Origin: Escherichia coli O157:H7
Lineage (GTDB): Bacteria; Pseudomonadota; Gammaproteobacteria; Enterobacterales; Enterobacteriaceae
Strand: one strand, 5' to 3'
Assembly (NCBI RefSeq): GCF_013167455.1
Contig: NZ_CP038328.1
Length of the DNA stretch: 64,000 bases
The translations under genes were made by a program, and so were the position numbers. Under the pieces are notes generated by a model. The model was given only the letters and a program-made list of their open reading frames with translations. It was not told the origin of the DNA and did not search any database. Below are positions 54,481-62,489 of this stretch, piece after piece. Numbering within the stretch: the stretch's first letter is position 1; each line of letters begins with the position of its first letter.

Positions 54481-55107
54481 GTGCCTGTGCTAGACCGCCA
54501 TCTTCATCCCCGGATTAAACCGTTGTTGCATCAGTGTGTGCGGGTTCTTGATAAACCGGGCATTACGCCAGATGGTTTAACATTAGTGGGATTTGCCATC
54601 GGTGTGCTGGCACTGCCTTTTCTGGCGCTGGGCTGGTATCTGGCGGCGCTTGTCGTCATTTTGTTGAACAGGCTGCTTGATGGTCTGGACGGTGCGCTGG
54701 CGCGGCGCAGAGGGCTTACCGACGCGGGCGGCTTTCTTGATATTTCTCTCGATTTTCTTTTTTACGCGCTGGTACCTTTTGGGTTTATCCTCGCCGCACC
54801 GCAGCAAAACGCCCTGGCAGGCGGCTGGCTGCTGTTTGCGTTTATCGGCACGGGTAGCAGTTTTCTCGCTTTTGCTGCGCTGGCGGCGAAATATCAGATT
54901 GATAATCCCGGTTATGCGCATAAATCGTTTTATTATCTGGGGGGATTAACCGAAGGCACAGAAACGATCTTACTGTTTGTGCTGGGATGTTTATTCCCTG
55001 CATGGTTTGCGTGGTTTGCGTGGATCTTCGGTGCGTTGTGCTGGATGACGACCTTTACGCGGGTGTGGAGTGGGTATCTGACGCTGAAGTCGCTCCAGCG
55101 TCAGTAA
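54481..55107 (+). CDS. ynjF: CDP-alcohol phosphatidyltransferase-family membrane protein YnjF
   Basis: 208-aa ORF, GTG start; D-G-x2-A-R motif (DGLDGALARR). Confidence 0.75.
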   Translation: MPVLDRHLHPRIKPLLHQCVRVLDKPGITPDGLTLVGFAIGVLALPFLALGWYLAALVVILLNRLLDGLDGALARRRGLTDAGGFLDISLDFLFYALVPFGFILAAPQQNALAGGWLLFAFIGTGSSFLAFAALAAKYQIDNPGYAHKSFYYLGGLTEGTETILLFVLGCLFPAWFAWFAWIFGALCWMTTFTRVWSGYLTLKSLQRQ

Positions 55108-55115
55108 TTGCAATG

Positions 55116-56423
55116 TTATTTGCTGCTGTCCGGGCCGCGTTCACCGGTTGCTACCGGATTTTTTGGATCGCTGCTCCATTCGTACCAGCCGCCGTCGTAA
55201 ACGGAGACGTTATTCCAGCCCATTGCTCGTGCGTACATAAAGGTTTCGGACGCGCGCCAGCCGGTGCCGCAGTAGAATGAAACTTGCTGATCTGGTTTGA
55301 TATTCCATGCTTTCCACATAGCGGTAATATCATCGGCGCTACGCATGGTGCCATCCGGATTATGGAAATCTTCCATATGCGTCGAGTCGCTACCAGCGTG
55401 TCCCCAACGTGCTCCGGCTATTTCACCTTTTGGTTTAATATAGCTGTAACCGCTGGTCGTACCGATAAATTCTGGCCACGAACGAATGCTCACCAGCGAT
55501 GCATCCTGGCGATGCAGCAGTCCACGGGCCTGTTCCATATCGAGCATCAACTGCGGTTGTGCCGGGATCTTCACGCCGAAATCCGGTTCCGCTTTCACTT
55601 TCGGTGGCGTACCGCGCTCAACGGGCAGACCCGCGTCGGACCAGGTTTGCCAGCCGCCATCCAGCAGGCGCACATCTTTCACGCCGGCATAAAGCATAAT
55701 CTGCGCCACACGCGCTGCAGCGTATACGTCACGCCCGTACAGAATGACCGTGGTGTCATGGCGAATGCCGTGTTTTGCCAGCATCGCTTTTAGTTGTTCA
55801 TCAGAAACTTTGTTCCACAGCGGTTCGCTTTCCACTTCGTTGGTATCGATGTAGTCAGCACCGGGAATATGGCTGATAAGGTAAAGCTTAGGAGCGCCCC
55901 TGGCCGCTTCAATGACTTTCCAGTCACCGGCAGGTTTCGCCGTAACCTCTTTACCTTGTTGCAGGTCGTGCAGCCATTGCGGATAAACCAGCTGCTCAAA
56001 GTGCGGCAGTTTTTGTAGACGGGAAGGTTCGCTTAGCGCGTCACTCAGAATGGAGATATGCGTAAAACCTGCTTTTTGCAGTCGCGTTTTGACGGCGTCG
56101 ACATCTTTGCCATTACCGTACAGCGCCACCGGGGCATCGGCTTTCAGGTTATGTTGCTTGATCCACGCGTTGAGCTGTTCGGTGCTCATTTTGTCAAGCC
56201 AGCTAGCAGAGAGGTTTAAGGCGGCAGGTTCATGACCAGAAGGGCCATTTAAGGTTTGTGGCCAGCCGTTATAAAACGCGCTGGAGCGAGTATCTATCGC
56301 TTTGCCATTTTGTTGTTGAAGCTGGTCAAGTGTAAGAGGCTTCGCCAGTTCAGCGGCCCACGAAGAAGCGCAAGCCAGCCCTAAAGCCATTGCCAGCGCG
56401 GTCATTTGAGAAACACGTTTCAT
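55116..56423 (-). CDS. ynjE: Rhodanese-domain thiosulfate sulfurtransferase YnjE
   Basis: Start at MKRVSQMTALAMA gives 435 aa; signal peptide; active-site CGTGWR. Confidence 0.75.
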   Translation of the reverse strand: MKRVSQMTALAMALGLACASSWAAELAKPLTLDQLQQQNGKAIDTRSSAFYNGWPQTLNGPSGHEPAALNLSASWLDKMSTEQLNAWIKQHNLKADAPVALYGNGKDVDAVKTRLQKAGFTHISILSDALSEPSRLQKLPHFEQLVYPQWLHDLQQGKEVTAKPAGDWKVIEAARGAPKLYLISHIPGADYIDTNEVESEPLWNKVSDEQLKAMLAKHGIRHDTTVILYGRDVYAAARVAQIMLYAGVKDVRLLDGGWQTWSDAGLPVERGTPPKVKAEPDFGVKIPAQPQLMLDMEQARGLLHRQDASLVSIRSWPEFIGTTSGYSYIKPKGEIAGARWGHAGSDSTHMEDFHNPDGTMRSADDITAMWKAWNIKPDQQVSFYCGTGWRASETFMYARAMGWNNVSVYDGGWYEWSSDPKNPVATGERGPDSSK

Positions 56424-56489
56424 CGAAAATCCCGACATTGTAGTTTTGAGTGCGCCATTCTGAACTGACGCATTGAGAAAAACTTTGCG

Positions 56490-57143
56490 TTATCGCAGTT
56501 TGTTGTAATTTTCTGACCACTGCGCCATATCCAGAACAGAACTATCAGCAGGAACATCCTGGAGATCGTGCGTTACCTGAACGACGGGGATCGCCAGTTC
56601 GCGAACTTCGCTGAACACCCACTGGCGAAAATTATCGCGCAGAGCCACATCAAGACGGCTGAATGGCTCATCCAGTAGCAACGCTTTTGGCTGAGCGAGA
56701 AGGGCGCGAAGCAGAGCAACGCGCGCTCGCTGACCGCCAGACAAAGTAGCAGGATCCTGATGGAAAGCTCCGTCAAGGCCTGAACGCTCAAGTGCATCAT
56801 TCACGGCATTACGTCGGGCATTCCCCTTAAGTGTCGCCGGTAGCGCCAGCAGTAAATTTTGCCCGACACTGAACTGGTCAAATAACAGTGCATCCTGAAA
56901 AAGAATGCCAATCTGACGCTGTGCGGTGGGTAGCATGTCAATCCGTTGCTCATTGAGCCATAGCTCACCTGTACAAGAAAACTGTCCGGCCAGTGCACCA
57001 ATCATCCATGAAAACAGAGTGGATTTTCCACAGCCAGACGGCCCCATTAACGTGACAATGTCACCTTTATCCACCGTAAAGTTAACGTTTGTCAGCAAGC
57101 AACTTTCTGGTAAACGTAGCGAAACATTTTTCACGCAGAGCAT
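56490..57143 (-). CDS. ynjD: ABC transporter ATP-binding protein YnjD
   Basis: Start at MLCVKNVSLRL gives 217 aa; Walker A GPSGCGKST and ABC signature LSGGQ. Confidence 0.75.
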   Translation of the reverse strand: MLCVKNVSLRLPESCLLTNVNFTVDKGDIVTLMGPSGCGKSTLFSWMIGALAGQFSCTGELWLNEQRIDMLPTAQRQIGILFQDALLFDQFSVGQNLLLALPATLKGNARRNAVNDALERSGLDGAFHQDPATLSGGQRARVALLRALLAQPKALLLDEPFSRLDVALRDNFRQWVFSEVRELAIPVVQVTHDLQDVPADSSVLDMAQWSENYNKLR

Positions 57144-61082: not shown

Positions 61083-61096
61083 CCTTTATCCTGGCT

Positions 61097-61774
61097 TTAT
61101 TCGGTGATTTTAAAGGTAACCGTTGCCAGCGTGTTATTCGCCGGGAGAACCGAGGCATTGCCTTTGAATTTAACTTCACCTCGTTTTTCAACCGCACCAT
61201 AAGTGTATGTTGCATTGCTGACGATGCCGACCGGGCAGCTATCCAGACACACCAGGCAACCCGTTTTCTTCTCTTCTGCTGCCGTTAAATTACCGCCAAA
61301 GCGCATGTCCAGTTTCTTGCCATTACTGTCAACAATCACTTCATCGAAGGAATACGTTTTTGCCGCCCCTTGCCAGTTGACCGAAATATCCAGTTTGCTG
61401 CCTGTGACATGAGTCGTTTCTTTATTATCCATCGTCATGTTTTCGCCCGGTGTACCACCTGCCTCTTTCAGGGCTTCATAAAATGCTTTCGGGGTCGCAT
61501 AACCCATAAACAGCGATTTATGTCCGTTGGAGCCATCTTTAAACACAATACCGTGACGAGTGTCGTCGGTGAGGAAACGACCATTAATTTGCACCAGCAT
61601 GGTTACCGTATGGTTATTGGCATCGACGCGCAGCGGTTGGCTGTTCGAAAGTCCGTCGTATTCCACTTTTGCCGCCGCATTCTCTTTTTGATCGCAGCCG
61701 CTAAGCCCAGCAACAGCCAGTAAGCAGAGTGCAGTCAGTCCTTTTTTCCATGACACTGAATAATGTTGCAACAT
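61097..61774 (-). CDS. ydjY: Cysteine-rich exported protein YdjY
   Basis: Start at MLQHYSVSWKKGL gives 225 aa; lipobox LSGC; C-terminal CLVCLDSCP. Confidence 0.7.
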   Translation of the reverse strand: MLQHYSVSWKKGLTALCLLAVAGLSGCDQKENAAAKVEYDGLSNSQPLRVDANNHTVTMLVQINGRFLTDDTRHGIVFKDGSNGHKSLFMGYATPKAFYEALKEAGGTPGENMTMDNKETTHVTGSKLDISVNWQGAAKTYSFDEVIVDSNGKKLDMRFGGNLTAAEEKKTGCLVCLDSCPVGIVSNATYTYGAVEKRGEVKFKGNASVLPANNTLATVTFKITE

Positions 61775-61778
61775 CGTT

Positions 61779-62489
61779 CTATCCTTCATTTTTTGGGTGA
61801 GTAAGTGGGTTGCGGCGCGAAGCAGACAGATCCACATGTTTGTGTCGGGCGTAGAGTTTTGCGAGCTGGACGAGAATAAACAGCGCCAGGCCCGCCAGAC
61901 AGAGTTGTAAAATAAAGCGCAGCGTAATGCCTTCATTGGCGAGATCGCTTGCCATCACGGTATAAATAACAATACCGGGCAGGGTCGTGAGTGCCGAAAT
62001 AAGGGTATAAGGCCAGAAGGCGATTGTGGTTAATCCGTAAGCGTAATTTTGAATATTGTAAGGAAACAACGGGATTAAGCGGGTCAGAATAAGAAAATCA
62101 ATACCGTTACGCGCAATGCCTTTTTCAATGGCCTGGAAGGTATGGCTATGGCCAACGTATTTCAGCAGTAAATCACGTCCCATCCAGCGCGCCAGCAGGA
62201 ATGAGCACGAGGAGGCCAGCGTGGCGGCAATTAATGAGAGTAGTGTCCCTAAGAACGGGCCAAAAACTATTCCTCCCGCGATCACCAATATGCTTCCTGG
62301 TAACAGAAAGAGGGTGGCAATGATGAATAACAGAATATAGAGGCTATAACCGAACAATCCGCTCTGGCGAATGAGTGTCTGTAAGTGGGGTAAATCGGTG
62401 AGCAGATCGAATAAACCGAAAGCGTGGATAGCGTAAATGGCCAGCGCAAAAATAAGACAGGCAAAAAGAAATTTACGCTCAGCGTTCAT
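61779..62489 (-). CDS. ydjX: DedA/TVP38-family membrane protein YdjX
   Basis: Start at MNAERKFLFACL gives 236 aa. Confidence 0.75.
   Translation of the reverse strand: MNAERKFLFACLIFALAIYAIHAFGLFDLLTDLPHLQTLIRQSGLFGYSLYILLFIIATLFLLPGSILVIAGGIVFGPFLGTLLSLIAATLASSCSFLLARWMGRDLLLKYVGHSHTFQAIEKGIARNGIDFLILTRLIPLFPYNIQNYAYGLTTIAFWPYTLISALTTLPGIVIYTVMASDLANEGITLRFILQLCLAGLALFILVQLAKLYARHKHVDLSASRRNPLTHPKNEG

Follow-up and report, generated by a model that had tools for sequence, protein, structure and literature searches.

A 64,000-nucleotide stretch of the Escherichia coli O157:H7 chromosome (contig NZ_CP038328.1; referred to here as the window) carries a block of nine ydj and ynj genes, the subject of this analysis. 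The block and its regulation are already known. On the minus strand, in the order of transcription, lie ydjX (61779–62489), encoding a VTT/DedA-superfamily membrane protein; ydjY (61097–61774), an exported lipoprotein with an invariant GC-x2-C-x-DSC motif; ydjZ (60375–61082), a second VTT/DedA membrane protein, of the COG0398 subfamily; ynjA (59827–60375), an AhpD-like CxxC protein of the CMD family, probably cytoplasmic; ynjB (58651–59817), ynjC (57143–58678) and ynjD (56490–57143), the periplasmic substrate-binding protein (SBP), fused double permease and ATPase of an ATP-binding cassette (ABC) importer; and ynjE (55116–56423), a periplasmic three-domain rhodanese. The ninth gene, ynjF (54487–55107, plus strand), encodes a membrane enzyme of the CDP-alcohol phosphatidyltransferase family. 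Coordinates were transferred to the window from the RefSeq annotation of an identical record and agree with the table of open reading frames (ORFs); the gene positions and overlaps given in an initial annotation, made from the sequence alone, proved exact. Three junctions overlap (ydjZ/ynjA by 1 bp, ynjB/ynjC by 28 bp and ynjC/ynjD by 1 bp), the remaining junctions from ydjX to ynjD are gaps of 4, 14 and 9 bp, and a 66-bp gap lies ahead of ynjE. The initial annotation had ynjF divergent beside the block; it is convergent with ynjE, tail to tail across an 8-bp gap, and divergent from nudG. A published list of convergent pairs with overlapping transcripts includes ynjE–ynjF. By genome search, positions 54000–63500 are 100% identical to several E. 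coli O157:H7 chromosomes and are present at a coverage of at least 80% in 5392 of 5426 complete E. coli genomes. The GC content across the block, 48–57%, is not distinctive, and base composition was dropped as a sign of recent transfer. An Rfam search of positions 52000–64000 (E ≤ 0.1) found no riboswitch or other known RNA.

Family searches agreed with the domain assignments made earlier: two DedA proteins, an AhpD-like CxxC protein, an ABC importer, a periplasmic rhodanese and a CDP-alcohol transferase. YdjX and YdjZ are members of the DedA superfamily, each with a Pfam VTT domain (VTT_dom, PF09335, cut-off 33.9; 91.8 bits and E = 6e-26 for YdjX, 84.4 bits for YdjZ) and multiple hydrophobic segments in a hydropathy scan. 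They fall outside the undecaprenyl phosphate (UndP) flippases of the UptA/COG0586 type, as the UptA NCBIfam models reached only 27–36 bits against a cut-off of 250. Published work assigns YdjZ to COG0398, a subfamily without the conserved charged residues of the re-entrant helices that are tied to UndP flipping, and places it among scramblase-like DedA proteins. YdjY carries the ydjY_domain and a Sec-type lipoprotein signal with the lipobox LSGC and no twin arginine. The description of YdjY as cysteine-rich needs correction: the mature lipoprotein has a single conserved three-cysteine motif (C173/C176/C180, GC-x2-C-x-DSC, of the form CxxCxxxC), and R73, H74, C173, C176, D178, S179 and C180 are invariant in 21 diverse members of the family. 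We rejected the database label of YdjY as a 4Fe-4S ferredoxin, given only three conserved cysteines, the Sec-type lipoprotein signal and the lack of a Fer4 match. A literature search found no published function for this protein.

The remaining proteins are equally recognizable at the level of family. YnjA matches Pfam CMD (PF02627, 36.4 bits, cut-off 23), has the AhpD-like motif CEFC at residue 76 and lacks a hydrophobic segment or signal peptide; its top NCBIfam model, ‘YciW-related (seleno)protein’, was below its cut-off, and no NCBIfam equivalog reached cut-off. YnjB (SBP_bac_8, with a signal peptide) has NF008633 as its sole NCBIfam match, at 560 bits. YnjC carries BPD_transp_1, with NCBIfam CysT-like matches in each half and approximately 14 hydrophobic segments in the hydropathy scan, and YnjD an ABC_tran domain (E = 1.8e-29) with Walker A GPSGCGKS and signature LSGG. 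With a binding protein, a two-domain permease and an ATPase, YnjBCD are predicted to form a binding-protein-dependent ABC importer. A 574-residue metagenomic protein from ENA (P0242), 98% identical to YnjB, combines CMD and SBP domains as an apparent YnjA–YnjB fusion, which probably arose by read-through or misassembly over the 9-bp ynjA–ynjB gap. YnjE is a rhodanese sulfurtransferase with three rhodanese stretches, a signal peptide and one active loop, C385-GTGWR. It has been reported as periplasmic, with poor activity on thiosulfate or 3-mercaptopyruvate and no thiosulfate:glutathione activity. YnjF (PF01066, 42 bits, cut-off 22; five hydrophobic segments) contains DGLDGALARRRGLTDAGGFLDISLD, matching DGLDGALAR-x7-G-x3-D-x3-D, and is predicted to be a CDP-alcohol phosphatidyltransferase. 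Its top NCBIfam models, archaetidylinositol-phosphate and phosphatidylinositol-phosphate synthases, were both under cut-off, and it reached the cut-off of no specific synthase model.

The ydjXYZ–ynjABCD operon has been published as directly activated by FNR from a site at −60.5. In the xthA–ydjX intergenic region upstream of ydjX we located TTGAGAAAAATCAA (62599–62612, minus strand), which departs from TTGAT-N4-ATCAA at a single position and fits the published site; the window contains five sequences of this kind. A separate FNR-dependent promoter with a site at −41.5 has been described for ynjE; between ynjD and ynjE no match with up to two mismatches was found, and the published site was not recognized in the sequence. 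Membership of the FNR regulon is therefore seen at ydjX in the sequence, with binding and expression taken from the publication. Independent component analysis of E. coli transcriptomes groups ydjXYZ–ynjABCD, ynjE, yedEF and yjiLM in one uncharacterized module, which is more active anaerobically and less so in fnr and arcA mutants, and which its authors tentatively tie to molybdenum and selenium use. Other published data show a decrease of ydjY, ynjE and yjiL along with anaerobic genes in a ygfI mutant, and a mild induction of ynjABCD on BaeR over-production. The tightly packed block of the initial annotation thus holds as a ydjXYZ–ynjABCD unit, though not as a single transcription unit, since ynjE has its own promoter. 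Published transcript data largely answer how the genes are controlled, and they show common rather than unrelated regulation.

YdjY homologues with 50–60% identity are found in Finegoldia, Desulfarculus, Sulfurospirillum and other anaerobes. The family is nevertheless rare: an exhaustive profile search yielded 393 cluster representatives among 1.84 billion proteins. We scanned one genome per species for ydjY loci and found 92, of which 80 were kept, representing 39 lineages; ORFs within 10 kb of ydjY were called and sorted into classes by seed proteins and all-against-all clustering. Six of the 80 loci are from Escherichia or Citrobacter. The non-enteric loci belong to Firmicutes (Gemella, Facklamia, Finegoldia, Peptostreptococcus, Catonella and some Clostridium and Bacillus), to Desulfobacterota/Syntrophia, to Sulfurospirillum/Campylobacter and to one spirochaete. 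A VTT gene or a Fer4-CCG-VTT fusion accompanies ydjY within 10 kb in 74 of the 80 loci, spread over four phyla and mostly as its immediate neighbour, and the clustered VTT family lies a median of 16 bp from ydjY, on the same strand in 94% of cases. Other companions are a small membrane protein with a WLEMR motif, encoded after ydjY (29 loci, 15 lineages), a rhodanese (19 loci, nine lineages), a YnjB-type binding protein with permeases (16 loci, nine lineages) and a YnjF-type transferase (10 loci, six lineages). A profile search of the six frames of positions 53000–64000 revealed no counterpart of the WLEMR protein; the WLERKR stretch of YnjA was considered as a relative and dropped, the resemblance not being significant.

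The importer and YnjF-type genes in these clusters are close relatives of those in E. coli. All five Firmicute SBPs tested beside ydjY belong to the YnjB subfamily NF008633 (381–509 bits, cut-off 203), and the Firmicute YnjF-type genes have the same top models as YnjF and stand in a row with the redox gene on one side and the ynjB-type importer on the other. Importer and YnjF-type genes occur together in six lineages. One Bacillota locus (L058) comes near to the E. coli order, with YdjY, a small ORF, two VTT proteins, Fer4/CCG, YnjF, YnjB, two YnjC proteins and YnjD; a VTT gene of this locus matches YdjZ at 277 bits. In Catonella, YdjX is approximately 32% identical to a VTT protein (VTT237), the Kluyvera YdjZ orthologue is 50% identical to the ydjY-adjacent VTT390, and YnjE and its orthologues are 38–39% identical to a lipoprotein rhodanese whose gene is divergent from ydjY. 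YnjA itself was found in enteric loci only; elsewhere, its position is taken by Fer4/CCG proteins, which resemble the C-terminal part of a ‘pyridine nucleotide-disulfide oxidoreductase/dicluster-binding protein’. The thiol-redox partners are always at the cytoplasmic position, and they are YnjA, a Fer4/CCG protein or CcdA with a ResA-like protein. Disulfide oxidoreductases are the commonest published fusion partner of COG0398 DedA proteins. The view of these genes as a functional module is borne out by the shared FNR activation, the single co-expression module and the synteny extending into Firmicutes, Desulfobacterota and Campylobacterota.

Gene fusions provide direct evidence that YdjY works with an extracytoplasmic rhodanese and with a VTT protein. 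Among the longer members of the family, four independent lipoproteins fuse YdjY to a rhodanese, in either order, one of them as YdjY–rhodanese–YdjY, with six-residue rhodanese loops (CYSGKK, CYSGNK) like those of sulfurtransferases. There are also two YdjY–VTT fusions, one of which may be E. coli ydjX–ydjY read-through, and a single YdjY protein is fused to a fatty-acid-hydroxylase domain. Some further features of the related loci are recorded here. In L094 and L095, HGD-D and BcrAD_BadFG genes (14096–15852, plus strand) lie 5 kb downstream of a rhodanese–YdjY fusion gene. To these Pfam families belong yjiM and yjiL, the E. coli genes found in one co-expression module with the block; we rejected yjiLM-like genes as recurrent ydjY neighbours, having seen only one other, weak case among the 80 loci. 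Rfam searches of seven related loci returned selenocysteine tRNA (tRNA-Sec), a tRNA, 5S rRNA and a Clostridiales-1 RNA, and nothing else. The last (RF01699, 49.5 bits, gathering score 48; L035, 10571–10678, plus strand) is placed between ydjY and the downstream VTT gene of Catonella morbi.

Among enterobacteria, YnjB is 75–85% identical in many Citrobacter, Kluyvera and some Salmonella. ydjY turned up in Escherichia and in a single species representative of Citrobacter, with a protein search adding sporadic cases in C. freundii and [Enterobacter] lignolyticus. Between xthA and nudG/gdhA, Citrobacter rodentium has one VTT gene, ynjB, ynjC, ynjD and ynjE, and on the opposite strand a ynjA orthologue (54% identity) that overlaps ynjF by 8 bp. 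In Kluyvera the orthologues of ydjX and ydjZ (76% each) are neighbours without an intervening ydjY; ynjBCD and ynjE come next, and an overlapping ynjA–ynjF pair lies further on. The ynjA orthologues of the two genera are 50–54% identical to that of E. coli. The enteric core is therefore VTT, YnjBCD, YnjE and YnjA/YnjF, with ydjY an optional insertion. Conservation of the neighbourhood across Enterobacterales stands for this core, ynjF included, and not for ydjY, which is sporadic. The ynjA–ynjF unit of Citrobacter and Kluyvera, together with the in-line position in Firmicutes, justifies the inclusion of ynjF in the module.

Genes for selenium and sulfur carriers adjoin the module in several lineages. 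In L096, one strand encodes VTT, the rhodanese–YdjY fusion, the WLEMR protein, VTT, YedF and a PF11823 ‘Se/S carrier’, and the other a CCG protein, a CDP-alcohol phosphatidyltransferase, a binding protein, two permeases and an ATPase. The YedF proteins of L096 and L080 score 189 and 185 bits with TIGR03527 (cut-off 110). In two Desulfobacterota (L080, L086), genes for YedF, a cysteine desulfurase/selenocysteine-lyase-like protein, a PF11823-like protein and the selenophosphate synthetase SelD are clustered 2 kb from Fer4CCG-VTT, YdjY and WLEMR, while in Facklamia lactis tRNA-Sec, SelD and SelB follow directly after the ydjY cluster. YedF-like genes lie within 10 kb of ydjY in nine loci (six of 39 lineages) and SelD in seven (five of 39); for a single-copy gene in a 2–5 Mb genome, the binomial probability of such proximity is at most 5e-5. 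This adjacency agrees with the co-expression of yedEF in E. coli. No cys-regulon gene is recurrent near the module. In C. metallidurans, selenite uptake has been tied to a DedA protein, and a 2009 paper describes the specific selenite route of E. coli as uncharacterized. Short ORFs resembling PrdB/GRDB, of the selenoprotein B family, occur in the clusters of Facklamia, Bacillus benzoevorans and Aerococcus (L078, 3693–4160, plus strand; equivalents in L073, L079, L082, L084, L069 and L089, the last at 4599–5273). They stop early, and a gap or another small ORF comes next, the pattern expected of an in-frame UGA selenocysteine codon, and may represent an undescribed small selenoprotein tied to the ydjY system. 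In E. coli, selD (47882–48925, plus strand) lies outside the block and is possibly related, its end being 5.6 kb from ynjF. It is an intact ORF of 347–349 codons in the window, while the matching RefSeq record (FORC_044) has a frameshifted selD pseudogene of 1043 bases, possibly through a single-base difference between the sequences or an annotation error.

A second group of neighbours carries names from arsenosugar biosynthesis. TIGR04282 and TIGR04283 genes, both over their curated cut-offs, lie near ydjY in 16 loci (nine lineages), and the radical-SAM protein ArsS (TIGR04167; 337 bits in Facklamia, cut-off 300) is found within 10 kb in eight lineages, accompanied by IU-nucleoside hydrolase and APH-family kinase/DUF2064 genes. 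Fer4CCG-VTT, YdjY, CMD, ArsS, TIGR04282 and TIGR04283 are closely packed in this order in L021; L055 has YdjY, WLEMR, CMD, ArsS, YedF and a PF11823-like gene; and in L026 and L030 a nucleoside hydrolase adjoins the YnjB-type importer. Loci lacking the ArsS-type biosynthetic genes tend to have the ABC importer and YnjF, and we read synthesis and import as two alternative supply routes for some small compound. The ArsS genes linked to ydjY have no ArsM-type methyltransferase with them, one weak match excepted. Canonical Bacteroidota ArsS loci, on the other hand, have CMD, ArsS and methyltransferase but neither VTT nor YdjY. In two such loci (L090, 9659–9994; L091, 9663–10001) a CMD-family gene of 111 residues lies directly ahead of ArsS, and L091 continues with a methyltransferase and has a PHO4-family phosphate transporter and a thioredoxin upstream, in the canonical arsenosugar arrangement. 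An Aerococcus ArsS cluster contains VTT and three rhodaneses without YdjY. None of the nine E. coli block proteins matched TIGR04167, TIGR04282 or TIGR04283, placing the block outside the ArsS system; genes of these families are confined to some of the non-enteric ydjY loci. YnjA was rejected as an ArsS-linked CMD protein of the TIGR04169 type, which it matched at only 20 bits, around the CxxC motif. Directly upstream of the L021 run, in Syntrophorhabdaceae, is a gene for a 657-residue protein (5802–7775, plus strand) that by eye combines an EF-Tu/CysN-like GTPase with a region like adenosine phosphosulfate (APS) kinase. A literature search found no description of a selenosugar/radical-SAM/rhodanese cluster.

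The ligand of the importer was approached through a structural model of YnjB (pLDDT, predicted local distance difference test score, 83.5). A fold search identified a cluster-D SBP, with matches at 12–18% identity; the best alignments were with PotD/PotF, a phosphonate binder, FutA/FbpA, AfuA and MctA, proteins that bind polyamines, 2-aminoethylphosphonate, iron, sugar phosphates or metal-citrate. Among the 50 fold matches listed there was no sulfate-, thiosulfate- or molybdate-binding protein, and YnjB is not the Sbp/CysP-type binding protein of a CysPUWA sulfate/thiosulfate importer. A single-sequence search of solved structures returned nothing, and a profile search only weak matches. Such a mixture of cluster-D binders at this level of identity rules out naming the ligand from sequence or fold; the model does not favour an oxyanion such as thiosulfate.

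We propose that a rare, horizontally spread module, switched on without oxygen, is represented by the ydj/ynj block in E. coli. The explanation that best accounts for it, with a probability that we put at roughly 0.45, is an anaerobic relay that carries a chalcogen across the cytoplasmic membrane; selenium is favoured, and sulfane sulfur is possible. Selenium is preferred because of the specific neighbours, the co-expression with yedEF and the fit with FNR control of the selenoprotein formate dehydrogenases. In this relay, the periplasmic rhodanese YnjE would take the chalcogen onto its active cysteine and hand it to YdjY, a lipoprotein anchored in the membrane, at its three-cysteine site. Passage through the membrane would fall to the VTT/DedA pair YdjX and YdjZ, and cytoplasmic YnjA would accept the chalcogen, or release it reductively, through its CxxC motif; in other phyla, HdrD-like Fer4/CCG proteins or YedF-type carriers may stand in its place. 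The chalcogen would finally supply selenophosphate synthesis for the anaerobic selenium-dependent formate dehydrogenases. A second sub-module, the least supported part of the proposal, would consist of YnjBCD importing a small polar compound and YnjF attaching it to a lipid handled by the VTT proteins. Beyond the observations above, we infer which way the chalcogen moves and what it is, whether the VTT proteins act as transporter or lipid scramblase, and what YnjBCD and YnjF do. The relay mechanism has no characterized precedent in these protein families. New here are the YdjY–VTT core across phyla, the rhodanese fusions, the ynjA–ynjF coupling, the adjacency to YedF, PF11823, SelD and tRNA-Sec, and the link to ArsS-type clusters.

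Several observations weigh against this relay. In its simple form it leaves the ABC importer and YnjF unexplained, and ynjF is outside the published co-expression module. The published prediction for COG0398 DedA proteins is lipid scrambling rather than solute transport. Of these proteins, only YnjE has experimental data, and its published role is in cytoplasmic sulfur transfer for molybdopterin. The commonest arrangement, that of Gemella and Finegoldia, is the bare pair of YdjY and VTT. The enteric relatives that lack YdjY show that it is not essential to the enteric core. A selenium marker lies beside the module in only about 8 of 40 lineages and is missing from most ydjY loci, and some selenium genes may be near a cluster merely because it encodes selenoproteins. 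The ArsS, TIGR04282 and TIGR04283 neighbours, for their part, point to a metalloid or a sugar-lipid alternative. We considered one variant for which these points leave room, though we regard it as improbable: the VTT proteins would flip a lipid-linked chalcogen carrier, a seleno- or thiosugar, rather than a solute. In some anaerobes an ArsS-family enzyme, supplied by rhodanese, YedF and PF11823 carriers instead of an arsenic methyltransferase, would make 5′-seleno- or 5′-thio-5′-deoxyadenosine, from which nucleoside hydrolase, APH-family kinase, the nucleotidyltransferase-like TIGR04282 protein and the glycosyltransferase TIGR04283 would build a lipid-bound seleno- or thiosugar. In E. coli the head group would be salvaged by YnjBCD and joined to lipid by YnjF, with YdjY and YnjE loading and unloading the carrier outside the cytoplasmic membrane and YnjA inside.

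Four rival explanations were considered. The initial annotation favoured a thiosulfate-like substrate, and uptake of thiosulfate or similar inorganic sulfur, imported by YnjBCD and cleaved by YnjE with YnjA and YdjY handling the sulfane sulfur, would suit the RefSeq name of YnjE (thiosulfate sulfurtransferase) and the weak matches of the ATPase and permease to sulfate/thiosulfate ABC components, among many others. We consider it unlikely. The enzyme assays and fold matches of YnjE and YnjB described above speak against such a substrate, a periplasmic rhodanese would act before the importer and not after it, and the recurrent partners are the selenium-trait genes YedF (TIGR03527), PF11823, SelD and tRNA-Sec rather than cys genes. 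The rhodanese–YdjY fusions and TusA/DsrE-like carriers suit sulfur as well as selenium, and with the thiol-redox partners they uphold a sulfur link in the broad sense; it is the thiosulfate-like substrate that is unsupported. Comparably doubtful is a module that handles the products of ArsS-type radical-SAM chemistry, organoarsenic or other 5′-deoxyribosyl compounds. These would be made in the cell by ArsS, nucleoside hydrolase, kinase and TIGR04282/TIGR04283 in some anaerobes; in E. coli they would be imported by YnjBCD, attached to lipid by YnjF and flipped by the VTT proteins, and the cysteine triad of YdjY would bind As(III). As(III) is typically bound by sites of three cysteines, the arsenosugar phospholipids known so far are derivatives of the phosphatidyl type, and the recurrence of these families above their cut-offs, the tight run in L021 and the nucleoside hydrolases beside the importer in L026 and L030 are all to be expected on this view. 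Against that, the clusters lack ArsM beyond the single weak match, the canonical Bacteroidota loci lack VTT and YdjY, and YedF and the PF11823-like gene come straight after ArsS in L055, an order that suggests selenium or sulfur rather than arsenic. The E. coli block, moreover, has no biosynthetic genes, and most ydjY loci have no ArsS.

The scramblase-like character of the COG0398 proteins lends itself to a further explanation, in which the block remodels membrane lipids anaerobically: YnjF would use a head-group alcohol brought in from outside to make a phospholipid of unusual type, YdjX and YdjZ would scramble this lipid between leaflets, and the redox and rhodanese genes would be accessory or unrelated. 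Published resemblance of these DedA proteins to eukaryotic phospholipid scramblases, the intact catalytic motif of YnjF, the six lineages with importer and YnjF-type genes and the fatty-acid-hydroxylase fusion are in keeping with it, yet it explains neither the near-universal pairing of VTT with a three-cysteine (Cys3) lipoprotein nor the rhodanese fusions, the disulfide-reductase–VTT fusions and the selenium-carrier neighbours, and most ydjY–VTT loci have no lipid-synthesis gene nearby; we hold it to be no likelier than the two before it. The least probable case, and a very improbable one, is that the genes have no common function, YnjE serving cytoplasmic molybdenum cofactor synthesis and the rest being unrelated neighbours under shared FNR control. 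The literature does annotate YnjE as a molybdopterin-synthase sulfurtransferase, ynjE and ynjF each have their own promoter, and ynjF stands outside the published co-expression module. However, Firmicutes and Desulfobacterota have this set of genes again, some proteins join rhodanese and YdjY in one chain, YnjE carries a signal peptide and is reported as periplasmic, and its Catonella orthologue (38% identity) is the lipoprotein encoded divergently from ydjY.

Around the block, xthA (62656–63462) and nudG (53993–54400), both on the minus strand, are the annotated flanking genes. nudG is convergent with ynjH (53755–54027, plus strand), the 3′ ends overlapping by 35 bp, and this pair is named in a published list of overlapping-transcript candidates. 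Further away, at approximately 39950–42480 of the window, an IS3-family transposase lies beside a major facilitator superfamily (MFS) transporter gene annotated as N-terminally truncated, which suggests an insertion event upstream of pncA/ansA in the strain background.

It has long been asked how trace selenium is taken up specifically by E. coli and other anaerobes and how it reaches selenophosphate synthetase. Three independent lines (FNR-dependent co-expression with yedEF, synteny with YedF, PF11823, SelD and tRNA-Sec across phyla, and YdjY–rhodanese fusions) lead from this block to selenium or sulfur trafficking. If the chalcogen relay is correct, the scramblase-like COG0398 DedA proteins and the YdjY domain would each gain their first physiological role, and it suggests that part of the ‘arsenosugar biosynthesis’ family serves a selenium/sulfur context in Firmicutes and Desulfobacterota. 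A lipid-linked carrier, if that variant were true, would constitute a new class of selenium- or sulfur-containing membrane lipid and imply a non-arsenic function for part of the ‘arsenosugar’ gene family. The question is directly testable by simple deletions in a model organism.

The proposed relay can be set beside several known systems. ArsS arsenosugar clusters (ArsS, ArsM, the TIGR04169 CMD protein and TIGR04282/TIGR04283) overlap with it in several lineages, where ArsS, CMD and the transferases adjoin ydjY and VTT, whereas the E. coli block lacks ArsS, ArsM and TIGR04282/3 and YnjA resembles their CMD protein at the family level only. The VTT/DedA domain of YdjX and YdjZ is shared with the rest of the superfamily, which includes the UptA/COG0586 UndP flippases and the scramblases TMEM41B and VMP1; a published analysis ties COG0398 to aerobic metabolism, in contrast to the members described here, which are FNR-activated and found in anaerobes. 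Relays of the DsbD/CcdA and ResA type likewise pass from a cytoplasmic reductant through a membrane protein to an extracytoplasmic cysteine protein, and CcdA-like and ResA-like genes lie within the Facklamia ydjY cluster. The E. coli block has no DsbD/CcdA homologue, however, and its partners are a rhodanese and YdjY rather than thioredoxin folds. PspE, Sud of Wolinella and ExtH of a selenite/tellurite reduction operon are, like YnjE, exported rhodaneses, and they mobilize chalcogen outside the cytoplasm; YnjE weakly matches the ExtH model. It differs from them in its three domains, its low thiosulfate activity and its partnership with YdjY and VTT in place of a respiratory reductase. A further parallel is with YedE/YedF and YeeE/YeeD (TsuA/TsuB), in which, as proposed for the block, a membrane protein is paired with cysteine carriers for chalcogen uptake, the carriers being TusA-like and the cargo thiosulfate, sulfur or selenium species. 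YedE/YedF is further connected to the block through the shared E. coli co-expression module and through YedF (TIGR03527) in or beside ydjY operons. The ydj/ynj module departs from both in using VTT/DedA proteins as its membrane component, in its extracytoplasmic stage of rhodanese and Cys3 lipoprotein, and in the ABC importer and lipid transferase that accompany it.

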